In this document: positions 57,423 through 63,580 of the stretch, piece by piece
Layout: the number at the start of each line of letters is the position of its first letter
Position numbering within the stretch: position 1 is the stretch's first letter
Source of the DNA: a virus
Virus record (IMG/VR): IMGVR_UViG_3300013737_000003
Reading direction: 5' to 3' (one strand)
Length of the DNA stretch: 64,000 bases
Made by a program: the position numbers and the translations under genes
The notes under the pieces: model-generated
What the model saw: only the letters and a program-made list of their open reading frames with translations
Database searches by the model: none
Told to the model about the DNA's origin: nothing

Positions 57423-57490
57423 GAAAGAACTTACTGAAGCAGCCGAGGCTGGCCCCGGCTGCTCTGTTAATTCTTGCAAGCGACCTGCTT
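57423..57490 (-). repeat. Conserved intergenic hairpin element, copy 1
   Basis: AAGCAGGTCGC...stem-loop...GTTCTTTC directly upstream of the RBS. Confidence 0.85.
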
Positions 57491-57502
57491 TGAATACTCG
57501 TC

Positions 57503-57604
57503 TCAGTTCATTTCAGTGGACGGCGGCACTGCCTTCTTCTTTGCTGCCTTCTTCGCAGGAGCTTTCTTTGCTGGTTTCTTGGGGGCTGCTGCTTTCTTCG
57601 CCAT
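57503..57604 (-). CDS. 33-aa Lys/Ala-rich histone-H1-like peptide
   Basis: MAKKAAAPKKPAKKAPAKKAAKKKAVPPSTEMN; AG-rich upstream; too short for the ORF track. Confidence 0.75.
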   Translation of the reverse strand: MAKKAAAPKKPAKKAPAKKAAKKKAVPPSTEMN

Positions 57605-57685
57605 CGTACTCTCATCCTTTGCGTCCTCTTGATTAGGAAGCACCCCAAAGCAACAGACGCAGATCACCGGGATGCTTTTGTGTCA

Positions 57686-57715
57686 AGTATGCTGACAGAT
57701 ACTGTCAGTTGTCAA
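57686..57715 (-). promoter_or_regulatory. Promoter TTGACA-N18-CATACT with operator copy 5 (57693-57707) in the spacer
   Basis: Directly visible. Confidence 0.7.
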
Positions 57716-58092
57716 TCGTTCTGAGGAATCTCCACATCACAACCCCAAGTTGTATCGAGCCAGAACTCCAGAAGTTCCTGCAATTCATCCCACCAGAACA
57801 CATCGATCTTGTATTGATCCAGAAATCGATCGATCCACTCAGACGAATCGAATCCTTTTATTAAGTTGCCGAGATCGAGTTCGAGGTTGTCATCATACTC
57901 ATCTTTGACCGTAACGACCGGACCATGAATCGCGTATGTTCCGTTGCCAAAGATGAACTTGGTTGGCCGGACTTCTTTCGGGAACTGCAGGCAAAGATGT
58001 ATCAGTCGACTGGCACACTCTCGATCCGTTCGACGGTCCACTTTGTCCAGCATTCGCCGCCGTTCGATTTTGATTTGTTCAAGGGTCCGCAT
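57712..58092 (-). CDS. Hypothetical protein
   Basis: GAGGAGTGACA-ATG start. Confidence 0.65.
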   Translation of the reverse strand: MRTLEQIKIERRRMLDKVDRRTDRECASRLIHLCLQFPKEVRPTKFIFGNGTYAIHGPVVTVKDEYDDNLELDLGNLIKGFDSSEWIDRFLDQYKIDVFWWDELQELLEFWLDTTWGCDVEIPQND

Positions 58093-58333
58093 TGTCACTC
58101 CTCTGGGTGTTTGGGTAAGGAGGGTTCTCGAACGTCACCTCGTCATTGAGATAGACACGGATACGAGGACCACCATCATCTTCCGGTAAGTTCAAAGTAT
58201 CCACGTTTACAACCACTGTATGGTCGACAGGGCTTTTGCTTACCAGAATTTCGAGGTTTTGTTCGTCGCTCATTTCAATAGTGATGCTTACGAAACCATC
58301 TAGGTCATCAGGCAAAACCAATACTTGTCCCAC
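58079..58333 (-). CDS. Acidic hypothetical protein
   Basis: GAGGAG upstream. Confidence 0.6.
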   Translation of the reverse strand: MGQVLVLPDDLDGFVSITIEMSDEQNLEILVSKSPVDHTVVVNVDTLNLPEDDGGPRIRVYLNDEVTFENPPYPNTQRSDNADP

Positions 58334-58366
58334 GTAGTTACTCCTCTGTGTTACGGATAAGCCAAC

Positions 58367-58393
58367 GCTGCTCAGCCGGTGAGACTGAGCAGC
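58367..58393. other. Intergenic 9-bp hairpin GCTGCTCAG-N9-CTGAGCAGC
   Basis: Directly visible between genes. Confidence 0.7.
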
Positions 58394-58402
58394 CTTGGGT
58401 CA

Positions 58403-59179
58403 TCAGTAGTTCTGAACAAGATTGCTGAGGTGATCGATGTCGCTGGCGGACAGGAGTGATTTCAGCTTCTTGCCGATCTCGTCACACGCTCGATAGACCG
58501 CTTCGGCCTTGCGGCTGTCCGTGTCATACCCGAACTCAGCAGCCCAATCCTCGAAGGTTGTTTCTGCGGCACGAGCATCCATCAGCAAACAGGACAAAGC
58601 ATCGGCAGCGGACACGCCTTCGCCATACCCTTGACGAGACAGGAATTGGCGGGCGGCTTTCACTCCTTTCTCTTTGGCGATCGCTTCTGCAGTATTGACG
58701 CCGCTACGGTGGGATCGCGTGGCCAGTTCAGAGAAGTCGCTCACGTAGAGGAAGTCGTGCGTGAAATGGAACCCGGTGAGTTTCATCAGGTCACGACCGC
58801 CTTGCCGGGATCGATTGATCCACGCCAGCAACTTGTCAAAAGCCACCCCGTTCTTCCGAACGTTCTCAGCAGTGCCGTACATCCCCTGCGAGTAACACGT
58901 CCTCGGTGCGTAGGCAATGCCCTGCCCGTAAGACGTCTCGAACAGCACGCGGTCCTTGCGGGAGAACCGCAGGGTGAACTGGATCGGCATCCCCTCCTCT
59001 TCGGTGTCGTACGGTCGCTTCAGATTGTAAACGAGCGCTCGGTACAGTTGCTCGCCGTCCAGACCACTGGGGTTCTGCACATACGAGAACTCGATACCCT
59101 TCTCAGTCAGAAACTTGTCAACAGCAATCTCGATGTCAAGGCTGTCTGTCAGCTCGACGGGTTTTGTTTGTTTGGTCAT
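58403..59179 (-). CDS. Hypothetical protein
   Basis: C-terminal LSCLLMDA...TFEDWAAEFGYDTDSRKA motif common in phage early proteins. Confidence 0.7.
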   Translation of the reverse strand: MTKQTKPVELTDSLDIEIAVDKFLTEKGIEFSYVQNPSGLDGEQLYRALVYNLKRPYDTEEEGMPIQFTLRFSRKDRVLFETSYGQGIAYAPRTCYSQGMYGTAENVRKNGVAFDKLLAWINRSRQGGRDLMKLTGFHFTHDFLYVSDFSELATRSHRSGVNTAEAIAKEKGVKAARQFLSRQGYGEGVSAADALSCLLMDARAAETTFEDWAAEFGYDTDSRKAEAVYRACDEIGKKLKSLLSASDIDHLSNLVQNY

Positions 59180-61771: not shown

Positions 61772-61795
61772 TGGTTGTCACTCCAACAGGGTTTC

Positions 61796-61860
61796 GAAAG
61801 AACTCATTCGACGAGTCGGTTGACCCGGCTCGTCTATCAGTTCTCGCAAGCGACCTGCTT
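61796..61860 (-). repeat. Conserved intergenic hairpin element, copy 4
   Basis: Near-identical to copy 3. Confidence 0.9.
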
Positions 61861-61861
61861 G

Positions 61862-62506
61862 TTATCCCTTCGCTACCTTTCTTGTAACAACTTCGAACTC
61901 CTGCAACTCTTCTCGCTCATTATCCTCTTCAGTGGGAGGATAAAGTTGGTACAGGAATTCCCAAGCATCTTCGAACGTCTTGAATTCTTTGTCCGGCCAG
62001 GGCTTGTTACCAGCCCAGTCCTCAATGACATACACGTCGATAGTGTCGCCACCGTCAACCGTGTGCCCGCATGACTCGCAGATCGTGTCGTGCCAGTCTA
62101 CATCCTCAATGCGAGGGGTGAAATGACCACAGTAACCACACCGATGAGTATTTGTGTCCTCCTGATAGTCCAGTTCGGCCTCCTCCTGCCAGTCGCCCCA
62201 GCAACCGATGTGGAACTGCTCGGACTGGCCATCCCAGATGATTGTTGCGGCGTACGTGTCTCCCCCATTGAGATACATGCATGATCGATGATCGCGACTC
62301 ATGAAATCATTGTCGGGGATACTGTTGCCCTCAACACCGAATGTTCCGTTTTCGCCACGCTTGCGAAGGTACTCTTCGGCTTTCAGCAACGCATCACTGG
62401 CATGATGAGACGGGTGGAATGACCCGTAGACATCCTCACGCTTCAGGCGACGAAACTCCCGCCGCGCCACCTTGAGAGCCCGTTCCCAGATTTCTTCGCT
62501 GTTCAT
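61862..62506 (-). CDS. Hypothetical protein with a Zn ribbon
   Basis: CGYCG...CESCG motifs. Confidence 0.65.
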   Translation of the reverse strand: MNSEEIWERALKVARREFRRLKREDVYGSFHPSHHASDALLKAEEYLRKRGENGTFGVEGNSIPDNDFMSRDHRSCMYLNGGDTYAATIIWDGQSEQFHIGCWGDWQEEAELDYQEDTNTHRCGYCGHFTPRIEDVDWHDTICESCGHTVDGGDTIDVYVIEDWAGNKPWPDKEFKTFEDAWEFLYQLYPPTEEDNEREELQEFEVVTRKVAKG

Positions 62507-62774
62507 GATGTTTCTCCAGCATAAAAATAGTTTTCGCTCGTGCCTCTGTCTGATTCCAGATCGCACAGTTCTTCTTGATCCGTTTGGTGCGGCAAGAAAA
62601 ACGATGACTGACCTCCATGCTTGTCATCTTGCCTTCAGCATCCAGCCACGCTGAAGTCGTCCAGTTGTCTGTGGTGTAGCAATCGATTTTGTGGATGACA
62701 CATCCACCGTTCGGGAACCAGTGAAATTGGTAATGCTCCCGATTGCATGCTGCTCTGTTGATGGGCCTTTTCAT
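62436..62774 (-). CDS. Hypothetical protein
   Basis: AAGGAGTGACAA-ATG. Confidence 0.6.
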   Translation of the reverse strand: MKRPINRAACNREHYQFHWFPNGGCVIHKIDCYTTDNWTTSAWLDAEGKMTSMEVSHRFSCRTKRIKKNCAIWNQTEARAKTIFMLEKHHEQRRNLGTGSQGGAAGVSSPEA

Positions 62775-62786
62775 TTGTCACTCCTT

Positions 62787-62852
62787 GAAAGAACTCACTG
62801 GATGTGCCGGTGTGACCCGGCACATCTGTCAATCCTTGCAAGCGACCTGCTT
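62787..62852 (-). repeat. Conserved intergenic hairpin element, copy 5
   Basis: Same flanks; covaried stem GATGTGCCGG/CCGGCACATC. Confidence 0.9.
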
Positions 62853-63493
62853 TAGATTTGATAGTCTACTACTTTTGCGAGATGAGCAGCGATGGCTTTC
62901 GCCGTTCTAATAGCTTCCTGCTTGCAATACTCATCACCATAGAAGCCCCAGCAACTACCCAGCTCGTTGCCGTCTTTGTCTTCGATCACATAGCCCCACA
63001 CATCATGCGTGAGCCATTTATCATACACCTCGACTTCAGCGACCAACATCTTCTCGCACTGTTGGTACAGCGTGAGCCCTGTCGGTTCGTAGATGTCAGT
63101 CCAGTTCTCCAACCCATACTCTTTGCGGGCTTTCTCCAAAGAGACGCAGATGAACCCGACAGGGCCGGAATCCCATCTGCACCCGAATGAACCGGTGCTC
63201 ATCGAGAGACCACTGTGATCCATGAGGTACAACCGCATCTCACAGTAGTGCTTTTCTTTCCACTGCATGATGTTCTGGGCTGAGATGCTCTCCAGAACGT
63301 TTGGGTGCATCTCCTGCATCTTGTGCCACCACCATTCAACCGCTGTCTCCTTTGGTTGTTCATCACCAAGAGTGTACCTGCGATGCCAGCACACCATCGT
63401 CCCGAGGCTGTCACAATACTTGCGAGGATTGCAAGGGTCCGGATCAGGCTCAATCCGCACTGTCAGACCATCAACTTCGAACTCGTCGCTCAT
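62852..63493 (-). CDS. Hypothetical phage protein
   Basis: LYLMDHSGLSMST...WDSGPVGFI...SCWGFYG motifs seen in phage early genes. Confidence 0.7.
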   Translation of the reverse strand: MSDEFEVDGLTVRIEPDPDPCNPRKYCDSLGTMVCWHRRYTLGDEQPKETAVEWWWHKMQEMHPNVLESISAQNIMQWKEKHYCEMRLYLMDHSGLSMSTGSFGCRWDSGPVGFICVSLEKARKEYGLENWTDIYEPTGLTLYQQCEKMLVAEVEVYDKWLTHDVWGYVIEDKDGNELGSCWGFYGDEYCKQEAIRTAKAIAAHLAKVVDYQI

Positions 63494-63505
63494 TCTGTCA
63501 CTCCT

Positions 63506-63580
63506 GAAAAGACCTGTGTGAGATCAACGCAGCACACCGTTGCCAGTGTGCTGACTTGATACCACGCAGCGACCTGCTTA
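63506..63580 (-). repeat. Conserved intergenic hairpin element, copy 6 (divergent stem)
   Basis: TAAGCAGGTCGC leader and TCTTTTC tail with a different stem (CAGCACAC/GTGTGCTG). Confidence 0.75.

Follow-up and report, generated by a model that had tools for sequence, protein, structure and literature searches.

Organization of the element in the window

The window analysed here is a stretch of viral DNA of 64,000 nt, in which an intergenic element of ~70–75 nt occurs in six copies, all on the minus strand, the sense strand of a long accessory-gene arm. The exact 11-mer AAGCAGGTCGC that opens each copy has seven matches in the window, every one on the minus strand; six of them mark true copies (first base of the leader at 57490, 59268, 61116, 61860, 62852 and 63579), and the seventh, at 35853, was rejected as a chance match because it lies antisense within a coding region and has no hairpin. 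These are the same six copies that an initial annotation had described, its listed starts being the plus-strand low ends and thus the 3′ ends of the elements. Their location after the stop codon of one gene and ahead of the ribosome-binding site of the following one, as well as the shared 5′ leader and the (G)TTCTTTC or TCTTTTC 3′ end, agree with that description; the name ‘early-gene array’ given there to the arm should be read as a presumption and not as an observation. The elements and two other hairpins of the same region are as follows:

57423..57490, minus strand: copy 1; leader AAGCAGGTCGC at 57490–57480, upper stem GAGCAGCCGGGG/CCUCGGCUGCUU, tail UUCUUUC; A·A replaces the G·G mismatch; AAGGAG and then ATG downstream; MFE -36.2 kcal/mol, z -4.9; 82 bits with the covariance model
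58350..58402, minus strand: leaderless 20-bp intercistronic hairpin; MFE -36.2 kcal/mol, z -4.7
59204..59268, minus strand: copy 2; ortholog of the junction at L015:14842, with homologous genes on both sides
59680..59758, minus strand: leaderless ~30-bp hairpin, nearly perfect, followed by UUUUU; z -5.6
61052..61116, minus strand: copy 3; upper stem identical to that of copy 4
61796..61860, minus strand: copy 4; ortholog of the junction at L015:17689, with homologous genes on both sides
62787..62852, minus strand: copy 5; upper stem GAUGUGCCGG/CCGGCACAUC; z -4.5; 95 bits
63506..63579, minus strand: copy 6; divergent hairpin sequence, unchanged leader, tail UCUUUUC; z -3.4; 28 bits, E 2e-4

The leader follows the upstream stop codon within 0–2 nt in five of the six copies (12 nt in copy 1), and in copy 5 its first A is overlapped by the stop TAA. 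At the other end, the U-rich 3′ strand of the element reaches the next Shine-Dalgarno, which begins 0–12 nt after the tail ((G)UUCUUUC, or UCUUUUC in copy 6). The elements are without exception placed from a stop codon to the next Shine-Dalgarno, in spacers of 64–97 nt. A single gene (61118–61771) is flanked by copies 3 and 4, which form a direct repeat. Of the leaderless hairpins, the one at 58350..58402 occupies a junction where L015, the nearest relative of the window, shows a weak family match (L015:13974), and the one at 59680..59758 stands upstream of gene 59270–59671.

Structure and covariation

Each element comprises an invariant, single-stranded leader of 10–11 nt and an imperfect hairpin of ~23 bp. 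In the hairpin, a lower stem of 4+7 bp is followed by a G·G mismatch (1x1), two further base pairs and an internal loop of 1x2; the upper stem of 10 bp is the variable part. Copy 6 keeps this layout with a 10-bp upper stem, a GCAA cap, a 2x2 internal loop and a 5+4 bp lower stem. The covarying stems quoted in the initial annotation are correct: GACGAGCCGG/CCGACTCGTC contains a single C·A mismatch and the remaining window stems pair fully, wobbles included. Fold z-scores against shuffled sequences ranged from -2.6 to -4.9 over the six window copies.

A covariance model, a check that the annotation had proposed, was trained on five window copies; it recovered the sixth, divergent one at E = 2e-4 and detected twelve copies in two other phage contigs (E = 1e-8 to 1e-17); a search of Rfam with the element gave no match. 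A second model led to sister copies, 5–10 per contig, in about eight more phage contigs. In the window-type alignment (13 copies from the window, L015 and L016) 95.6% of the cells are paired and both sides change in 18 of the 23 pairs, and in the sister-type alignment (42 copies from eight further contigs) 96.9% are paired and both sides change in 15 of 17, both alignments being fitted to the model structure. The window-type pairing was reached by none of 500 shuffles, and controls with slid partners were ~45% paired. The ratio of G·U to A·C is 37:4 in the window type and 131:1 in the sister type, and since G·U far exceeds A·C, the sense strand is the folding strand. The sense fold also beats the antisense fold by a mean of 7–8 kcal/mol, being the more stable in 12 of 13 window-type and 35 of 42 sister-type copies, and all full-length model matches lie on the coding strand of the arm. 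Copies within one genome resemble each other more than orthologous copies across genomes, so part of the covariation signal stems from a few lineage-level changes. The strong and sense-strand-specific covariation supports the element as a structured cis-acting RNA, which bears out the first proposal of the initial annotation, and it is very probable that the RNA structure of the sense strand is under selection.

Distribution and cassette junctions in related phages

The element family is present in at least 11 related phage contigs, and the four complete element-bearing relatives have 6–7 copies each. The copies are all found in one arm, adjoining a SNF2 helicase; the gene content of this arm is not conserved across the clade, and its proteins gave no informative Pfam or PHROG matches. 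Where junctions have orthologous flanking genes, leader and tail are retained along with the sequence on either side of the internal loop, and stem changes are compensated, with flanking proteins just 30–55% identical. The leader is uniform within each genome and varies among genomes (GGTCGCTTGC in the window, GGTCGGAAGC in L015, GGTCCGG in L030/L032, CAGTCGGCGGCGG in L021 and CAGGGCGG in L024), a CAGG core being common to the leaders of the family across divergent phages. Additionally, copies that consist of the leader only are located at the head of the arm, in a divergent region, in L021 (20700) and L017 (20804).

The initial annotation had also suggested a recombination module that shuffles gene cassettes and had called for a comparison of gene order. 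In relatives, from which the recombination evidence is drawn, the elements do mark points where single genes were gained or lost. L024 has an element, a 183-aa gene and another element, whereas L025 (98–99% identical) has one chimeric element at that place. Between L032 and L033 the elements are 97–99% identical, the homologous flanks 84–88% and the other flanks unrelated, one upstream gene being joined to hairpin A in L032 and to hairpin B in L033. The crossover points differ: the leader was the site in L032/L033, whereas L024/L025 crossed over in the 3′ arm of the upper stem. Such scatter is consistent with general homologous recombination but not with cleavage at a fixed position. Between the window and L015, exchange is visible only as gene-level gains and losses adjoining elements. 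For homologous exchange the phage has means of its own, namely an exonuclease and a single-stranded-DNA-binding module of the Enc34 type; as direct repeats of ~75 nt, the copies also serve as homology patches, and in the relatives general recombination within them adds, removes or re-pairs single-gene cassettes in the manner of the promoter-early stem-loops (PeSLs) of T4. A role of the element as a cassette junction in this clade is highly probable.

Possible functions of the element

For the RNA itself, we favor, with about even confidence, an intercistronic site of the T7 RNase III type at which the RNA is processed or stabilized and which is at the same time a PeSL-like homology linker. We infer both that the arm is co-transcribed and that the transcript is cleaved at the elements. 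The element would act in the sense-strand RNA of the arm, where a double-strand-specific endoribonuclease of the host, be it RNase III or its equivalent, would cut near the internal loop and divide the polycistronic transcript into units; the upstream mRNA would gain a protective hairpin at its 3′ end and the downstream mRNA would begin just before its own ribosome-binding site, an arrangement also found in the early region of T7. RNase III requires ~22 bp, and internal loops lead to single-strand cuts that leave stabilizing 3′ hairpins (PMC3867540). When folded for comparison, T7 R0.3, R0.5, R1, R1.1 and R1.3 show a capped upper stem of 9–13 bp, an internal loop and a lower stem, and the spacers of R0.5, R1 and R1.3 measure 62–80 nt from stop to start according to annotated gene coordinates; the likeness to T7 sites seen by the initial annotation thus extends to placement and architecture. 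The choice of RNase III itself as the nuclease is tentative. It leaves unexplained the invariant leader, the UGCG tetraloop (41 of 42 sister-type copies) and the U-A/G·G/A-U motif, which look like determinants for a sequence-specific partner, and the leader-only copies at the arm head count against processing because there is no upstream cistron to split off. The leader may be bound by a further factor.

These same features suggest a rather unlikely alternative in which leader, G·G motif and tetraloop are bound by a sequence-specific factor, probably one that the phage encodes, and the hairpin belongs to the surface that is recognized instead of being a nuclease substrate. Such a factor could act on DNA, as at an operator or a mycobacteriophage-type stoperator that blocks elongation in one orientation, or on RNA, as at a nut-type antitermination site or a translational operator. 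The asymmetric leader, its single orientation relative to transcription and its confinement to short intergenic spaces are consistent with this, the leader-only copies at the arm head parallel the L5-like operator-plus-stoperator layout (PMC9283540), and the tetraloop is constant. However, a covarying G·U-rich hairpin is unnecessary for a DNA operator, nut-type sites occur once per operon and not ahead of most genes, and no candidate factor was found in an arm whose proteins gave no informative matches and whose gene content varies across the clade; uniformity of the leader within genomes and difference between them, expected of co-evolution with a phage specificity factor, arises equally within a genome by gene conversion between copies. 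It is improbable that the hairpin is an attenuator or terminator that insulates cassettes in the manner of T4 PeSLs, with the downstream gene relying on read-through or an unrecognized promoter in the leader. The upper stems are indeed stable, GC-rich and followed by U-rich sequence (with a UNCG-type cap in the sister type), a leader-only copy at the arm head would suit a promoter, and the stem-loops of PeSLs, whose genomic setting is analogous, have been proven to terminate transcription (PMC2839356). Yet the GC-rich stem and the U-rich run are ~8 nt apart, with a stretch between them that is not U-rich (CAAAUGAG); the run is itself paired in the covarying lower stem, and the full hairpin has no U tract after it. 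A consensus scan called no sense-strand terminator in any of the six window elements and no sigma-70-type promoter on the sense strand of the elements, and the complete relatives gave no sigma-70 region-2 match above the cut-off and, in a search that had no positive control, no match to a T7-type RNA polymerase.

Cassette gain and loss falling exactly between two copies, and an imperfect hairpin with variable tip right after each ORF in one orientation, as in attC logic, bring to mind folded single-stranded DNA or a dedicated site-specific recombination site, which could be attC-like, a REP/RAYT substrate or the site of the conserved tandem serine recombinase of the clade (one ORF with two Resolvase domains in every complete relative). 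This is very improbable: tyrosine recombinases and Y1 HUH transposases were not found in the four complete element-bearing genomes, the attC core sites RYYYAAC/GTTRRRY are missing, the crossover position varies between events, and the exonuclease and Enc34-type module are available for homologous exchange. Single-stranded DNA would tolerate G·T wobbles too, but serine recombinases read double-stranded half-sites, which are expected to be conserved and not freely compensated, and in duplex DNA the 131:1 bias would be meaningless. Equally hard to credit is the release of the copies as sibling small RNAs acting in trans on a host target with the leader as 5′ seed and the hairpin as stabilizer. 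The invariant single-stranded 5′ part, stable hairpin and U-rich tail resemble 3′-UTR-derived small RNAs, the dose would be high owing to the number of copies and the CAGG core is kept across divergent phages, although the paired tail leaves no free U tail, no complementary site exists elsewhere in the window, and the tight link with the stop codon and with the ribosome-binding site that follows argues for action in cis. Finally, the initial annotation had read the basal UGA on both strands as opposed G·A pairs that are k-turn-like, and had speculated on a link with a Nop-domain protein, the TasA encoded downstream. The UGA motif is real, yet invariant U-A and A-U together with covarying neighbor pairs fix the register, so that only one G·G mismatch (1x1) is left, replaced by A·A in copy 1; the internal loop has neither a 3-nt bulge nor tandem sheared G·A pairs, and k-turn identity was rejected. 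The TasA link was rejected as well, the family being present at 6–7 copies in the four complete genomes without TasA, and the chance that both would hold is negligible. TasA homologues occur in L015 and L016 only among 108 loci, and the TIGR array has no 9-mer in common with the elements. Of the interpretation first given, the structured cis-acting RNA and the recombination module are thus retained and the k-turn is not.

Comparison with known systems

The T7 sites share with the element paralogous hairpins in spacers of ~60–100 nt, from stop codon to next ribosome-binding site, in a polycistronic phage transcript, and a capped upper stem of ~10 bp, an internal loop and a lower stem that amount to about two helical turns. 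In both, the flanks are conserved and the apical sequence is variable (PMC3867540), and T7 R1 has a CUGCGG loop as in sister-type elements. On the other hand, there is no sequence homology and cleavage of the element by RNase III is only predicted; the element is set apart by a leader, invariant and single-stranded, that is fused to the stop codon, by its conserved G·G mismatch and by the greater length of its lower stem, and its phages are unrelated to T7, with no detectable T7-type RNA polymerase. T7 RNase III sites are not known to serve as cassette junctions.

Cluster A stoperators and cluster K SAS/ESAS are also short asymmetric motifs, found in many short intergenic spaces in an orientation that follows transcription, and the function of SAS/ESAS is likewise not known (PMC9283540, PMC3203893). 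Neither has sequence similarity to the element. Stoperators are 13-bp DNA sites without hairpin that are bound by a known repressor, and SAS takes in the ribosome-binding site, whereas the conserved motif of the element abuts the upstream stop codon and its hairpin shows RNA-type covariation. Integron attC sites and bacterial REP sequences are, like the element, imperfect palindromes right downstream of ORFs, repeated in one orientation and conserved in structure beyond sequence, attC being linked to cassette mobility and REP to stabilization of the upstream mRNA. Unlike them, the element lacks R''/R' core sites and has variable crossover points, and IntI and RAYT were not found in the complete relatives.

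PeSLs of T4-type phages are repeated intergenic motifs in one orientation that flank ORFan genes in the hyperplastic region; they are better conserved than the genes they flank, and recombination between neighboring copies deletes, inserts or swaps single-gene cassettes (PMC2839356, PMC4122927). A PeSL consists of a strong sigma-70 promoter and a poly-G/poly-C terminator stem-loop, whereas the element, a long imperfect hairpin with sense-strand wobble pairs, has neither a sigma-70 promoter nor terminator geometry. The L024/L025 and L032/L033 events are exactly of the PeSL type.

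Element copies and their setting

The window contains seven exact matches to the 11-mer AAGCAGGTCGC, all of them on the minus strand, and the scan located the first bases of the six copies of the intergenic element.

Element copies in the window (first base, exact 11-mer scan)
57490, minus strand, element copy
59268, minus strand, element copy
61116, minus strand, element copy
61860, minus strand, element copy
62852, minus strand, element copy
63579, minus strand, element copy

Every gene between about 54 and 64 kb is encoded on the minus strand, and the element is thus in sense orientation. 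All six copies reported in the initial annotation were confirmed; they had been listed there by the low coordinate on the plus strand, which marks the 3' end of each of these minus-strand elements. The seventh 11-mer, at 35853, is antisense within a coding region and lacks a hairpin, and was set aside as a chance match. In the element, read from 5' to 3', a stop codon comes first, then the leader (AAGCAGGUCGC), an extended imperfect hairpin and a (G)UUCUUUC tail, and the Shine-Dalgarno sequence of the next gene stands 0–12 nt beyond. The upstream stop is TAA in five of the six copies, where it overlaps the leader or precedes it by 1–2 nt, and TGA in copy 57490, 12 nt before the leader. This position between a stop codon and the next ribosome-binding site is common to all six copies and to all copies in relatives, and every window copy folds more stably than its shuffles (z −2.6 to −4.9).

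Other spacers of the same arm of small accessory genes hold long intercistronic hairpins that lack the leader: one at 58350-58402 (minus strand) with 20 bp and two 1x1 mismatches, and another at 59680-59758 (minus strand) with about 30 nearly perfect pairs and a UUUUU run after them, whose apical region contains a sequence complementary to the next ribosome-binding site. A scan of IMG/VR with the exact leader AAGCAGGTCGCTKGCRAG returned seven loci, all chance matches within coding sequence; blastn of window 57-64 kb against GenBank phages gave no match, and Rfam gave nothing at E ≤ 1 for window 55000-64000 and nothing at gathering score for four related contigs (L015, L021, L024 and L030).

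Hairpin structure and covariation

RNAalifold predicted 23 pairs from five window copies, arranged as 4+7+2+10 bp. A basal stem of 4 bp (CUUG/CAAG) is followed by a lower stem of 7 bp, the 3' strand of which is the UUCUUUC tail; above it come a 1x1 mismatch between a U-A and an A-U pair, 2 bp, a 1x2 internal loop and a 10-bp upper stem, with the loop 10 bp below the apex. In copy 63579 the leader, the tail and the hairpin layout are retained, and the hairpin sequence differs. A covariance model of the window-type element (R1) matched the two closest relatives by helicase: five strong copies and one weak in a 70-kb NCBI metagenome contig (L015, helicase 67% identical) and two in a 9-kb Logan contig (L016, 65%). 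When 13 copies were aligned by fitting them to the model structure, 95.6% of the pairing cells were paired compared to 74% in shuffles and about 45% with slid partners, 18 of the 23 pairs had changed on both sides, and G·U or U·G cells numbered 37 against 4 A·C or C·A cells; since copies within a genome are alike, independent changes are fewer than these cell counts imply. The sense RNA was also the more stable of the two strands in 12 of the 13 copies. The pairing, the compensation, the excess of G·U over A·C and the sense-strand stability in these copies indicate that the fold is selected on the sense strand and point to RNA.

The 1x1 mismatch corresponds to the UGA that the initial annotation had noticed on both strands and read as k-turn-like, with a possible link to the Nop-domain protein TasA. 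The motif is present, and the k-turn geometry is not: the two UGA trinucleotides pair as U-A, G·G and A-U, with neither a 3-nt bulge nor tandem G·A. The register is fixed by invariant Watson-Crick pairs (27-66 and 29-64) and by covarying neighbours (26-67 and 30-63), so that one G·G mismatch remains, replaced by A·A in one copy. Additionally, TasA homologues were found, among all fetched loci, only in L015 and L016 and were absent from four complete genomes with 6–7 elements each; this absence and the 1x1 G·G register dispose of the Tas link. TIGR guides aimed at the element were rejected as well, as the array and the elements have no 9-mer in common.

A sister form in farther relatives

Farther relatives (helicase 47–52% identical) have the genome plan of the window, in which a plus-strand replication module ends in the SNF2 helicase and is followed by a convergent minus-strand arm of small ORFs with spacers of 64–97 nt. 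These spacers hold a sister form that begins with a stop codon, a leader (CAGUCGGCGGCGG in L021, CAGGCAGGGCGG in L024 and (U)AGCAGGUCCGG in L030, L032 and L033) and a purine-rich 5' arm, and continues with ...UGUGACAG, a 9-bp upper stem, a UGCG loop and the 3' arm GAUCGUGUUCUUUC; it folds as 9+13 bp with a 2x2 loop. Both forms contain a CAGG(U)C core in the leader, UGAUAGAC ahead of the upper stem and a GUUCUU tail, and these shared motifs, together with the identical genomic position, show that the two forms are homologous. Searching for the family with a loose regular expression proved too unspecific, and covariance models were used instead. The sister-type model (R2) found 5–10 copies each in L021, L024 and L028-L033 and fewer in shorter loci, and all full-length matches were on the coding strand of the arm. 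In 42 aligned sister copies, 96.9% of the cells pair, 15 of 17 pairs have changed on both sides and G·U outnumbers A·C by 131:1. The apical loop is UGCG in 41 of these 42 copies (L021, L024, L028-L033, alignment A7). Its closing pair varies (C-G, U-A or U-G), and a CGAG loop is found in the single exception and in a recombinant element of contig L025; the loop of the T7 RNase III site R1 is CUGCGG.

The family thus numbers 55 or more aligned copies from at least 11 phage contigs and is absent from Rfam; contigs of this kind are carried by coral and lake metagenomes. The covariance-model search proposed in the initial annotation recovered homologous copies in related phage contigs, and the structured cis-acting RNA envisaged there is borne out by sense-strand covariation in 13 copies with R1 and 42 with R2. 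Four complete genomes of 65–68 kb, of which three have direct terminal repeats, carry all their copies inside one stretch of 4–6 kb, which in one complete genome lies 2.6–7.6 kb from the genome end. Searches for relatives through a 213-aa arm protein returned only distant loci without the element, and those through a 261-aa arm protein returned none. A prophage-like region of the cultured planctomycete Stieleria maiorica (L108, CP036264.1, 3049430-3070827) has a helicase homologue but a different gene layout, and is not a close relative; it shares the DUF2800, Enc34-type ssDNA-binding, PolA and SNF2 module and also has a CsrA-family gene, and the convergent small-gene arm is missing. The helicase homologues hint that the host may belong to Planctomycetota.

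Cassette junctions and recombination

The arms of the window and L015 are syntenic, with proteins 30–64% identical. At two orthologous junctions, where both flanking genes are homologous (61860 with L015:17689 and 59268 with L015:14842), the leader, loop flanks and tail are kept and the stems are compensated, as in the change of the basal CUUG/CAAG to GAAG/CUUC. Elsewhere in the two arms, elements and small genes have been gained or lost side by side: an extra 112-aa gene stands directly after copy 62852, and copy 61116 takes the place of a 76-aa gene of L015.

Closer pairs of relatives bear out the suggestion of the initial annotation that the element shuffles cassettes. L024 and L025 are 98–99% identical, and where L024 has an element, a 183-aa gene and a second element, L025 has one chimeric element whose 5' part is the upstream L024 copy and whose 3' part is the downstream copy. 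In L032 and L033, elements are 97–99% and homologous flanks 84–88% identical while several other flanks are unrelated; one upstream gene joins, through the shared leader, one hairpin in L032 and a different one in L033, which also has an additional cassette between two elements. The crossover points differ between these events, lying in the leader for L032/L033 and in the 3' arm of the upper stem for L024/L025, and this spread fits general homologous recombination. The phage has its own PD-(D/E)XK exonuclease, and L015 adds an adjacent Enc34-type single-stranded-DNA-binding gene. In the window, the third and fourth copies (61052-61860, minus strand) have identical upper stem and loop and form direct repeats around a single 217-aa gene (61118-61771), the same configuration as in the cassette loss of L024/L025.

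Role of the element

The shared strand and the absence of promoters suggest that the arm is co-transcribed. No sigma-70 promoter was found in any of the six elements by consensus scan or by eye: TTGACA/TTGATA and TTGCAA occur without a -10 box at proper spacing. A sigma-54 promoter was ruled out by its GG-N10-GC spacing, the element having GG-N6-GC. The scan gave only two promoter-like sites on the sense strand of 53-64 kb, at 57715-57686 and 60702-60673. The former (minus strand, TTGACA-18-CATACT) is the best sigma-70-like promoter on the sense strand of the arm; it overlaps the palindrome TGACAGATACTGTCA, and downstream of it comes a 54-aa Lys/Ala-rich ORF (57503-57667), followed in turn by copy 57490. 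The same scan called no sense-strand terminator on the elements, and there is a gap of 8 nt between the GC-rich stem and the U-rich run, the latter being itself paired in the covarying lower stem. A classical terminator therefore appears to be out, as does a strict PeSL (the promoter-early stem-loop of T4), given the missing sigma-70 promoter and terminator geometry. The complete relatives supplied no enzyme for site-specific models: no sigma factor, RNase III gene, Y1 transposase or tyrosine recombinase scored above cut-off in them, and a search run without a positive control found no T7-type RNA polymerase.

The most likely role at the RNA level is endonucleolytic processing and stabilization, in which a polycistronic arm transcript would be cut at the elements and stabilized. 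RNase III requires about two helical turns (~22 bp), and internal loops limit it to a single-strand cut that leaves a stabilizing 3' hairpin (PMC3867540). The early RNase III sites of T7, folded with the same tool, have a capped upper stem of 9–13 bp, an internal loop and a lower stem, and the stop-to-start spacers at R0.5, R1 and R1.3 measure 62–80 nt by annotated gene coordinates. The hairpins of the element are similar, with 20–23 bp and an internal loop 9–10 bp below the apex, and are likewise intercistronic, between the stop codon and the next ribosome-binding site. This likeness, the substrate rules, and the hairpin size and loop position together argue for processing. The T7 resemblance drawn in the initial annotation thus holds for placement and folded plan; that RNase III is the specific enzyme is a tentative proposal by analogy, and somewhat doubtful.

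The main rival is a stoperator-like or nut-like site for a sequence-specific partner (PMC9283540, PMC3203893). It is retained because the leader at the stop codon, the G·G motif, the UGCG loop and the leader-only copies, all of which are outside the RNase III model, suggest such a partner. The leader-only copies, without the large hairpin, are at L021:20700 and L017:20804 (both minus strand), in the divergent intergenic region that heads the minus-strand arm, where the arm promoter is expected; in the window the head of the arm is beyond base 64000. In L017, the leader sequence GCAGGG pairs with an upstream CCCUGC, which places the stop codon in the loop of a small hairpin. The leader also resembles SRP RNA domain IV over 9 nt, which we take to be coincidental.

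A bolder proposal, to which very little credence is given, is that a dedicated, clade-specific factor uses the element as its recognition site and that the arm is an integron-like, actively managed phage cassette array. The stop-codon-linked leader would then be the specificity determinant and the hairpin an architectural or single-strand element; the factor could be, for example, a conserved protein with two resolvase domains, or another RNA- or DNA-binding protein. One ORF of 513–549 aa with two Resolvase (PF00239) domains is present in each of G002-G005 (e.g., G003:C1:54428-55414), and its presence in every complete relative marks this tandem serine recombinase as a conserved feature of the clade. 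Tyrosine recombinases (PF00589) are absent from all five genomes searched (G001-G005), in a search whose control was positive in 14 of 14 genomes.

Pairing of the leader with the downstream Shine-Dalgarno sequence, as a translational-coupling switch, is predicted in some copies (GUCGCU with AGUGAC) and was rejected as a general mechanism because GGAGUGACA also heads arm genes that have no element, and sister-type leaders have no anti-Shine-Dalgarno complementarity. Most gene starts in window 57400-63500 (minus strand), with or without the element, read GGAGUGACA-N(0-3)-AUG, and the GUGAC of this ribosome-binding context complements the leader GUCGC in the window and not in sister-type phages.

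If the processing and linker functions are confirmed, they would reveal how a fast-changing accessory arm stays expressible in an uncultured phage clade: a gene that enters the arm would acquire a stop codon, together with an insulator or processing site at the RNA level and a clean ribosome-binding site. A trans-acting partner could be sought through the leader, the G·G motif or the UGCG loop, and the element could potentially serve as a compact natural insulator in synthetic operons.

Comparison with known systems

The element differs from integron attC sites in that the RYYYAAC...GTTRRRY core sites are absent; its tail is GTTCTTTC and its 5' arm RAGRAWT. It resembles L5-like stoperators as an asymmetric element in short intergenic spaces and in one orientation, and these also occur at the early promoter, which may be compared with the leader-only copies heading the arm in L021 and L017. 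Like the PeSLs of T4, for which the same recombination behaviour has been described (PMC2839356, PMC4122927), it flanks ORFans in a variable region where copy-to-copy recombination gives indels and swaps; unlike them, it has no strong sigma-70-like early promoter. The element is a new family, absent from Rfam, that unites features of the T7 processing hairpins with those of the T4 PeSLs. In model phages the T7-type intercistronic hairpin and the PeSL-type homology linker are so far known as separate functions; the element would combine the two, the linker here lacking its promoter.
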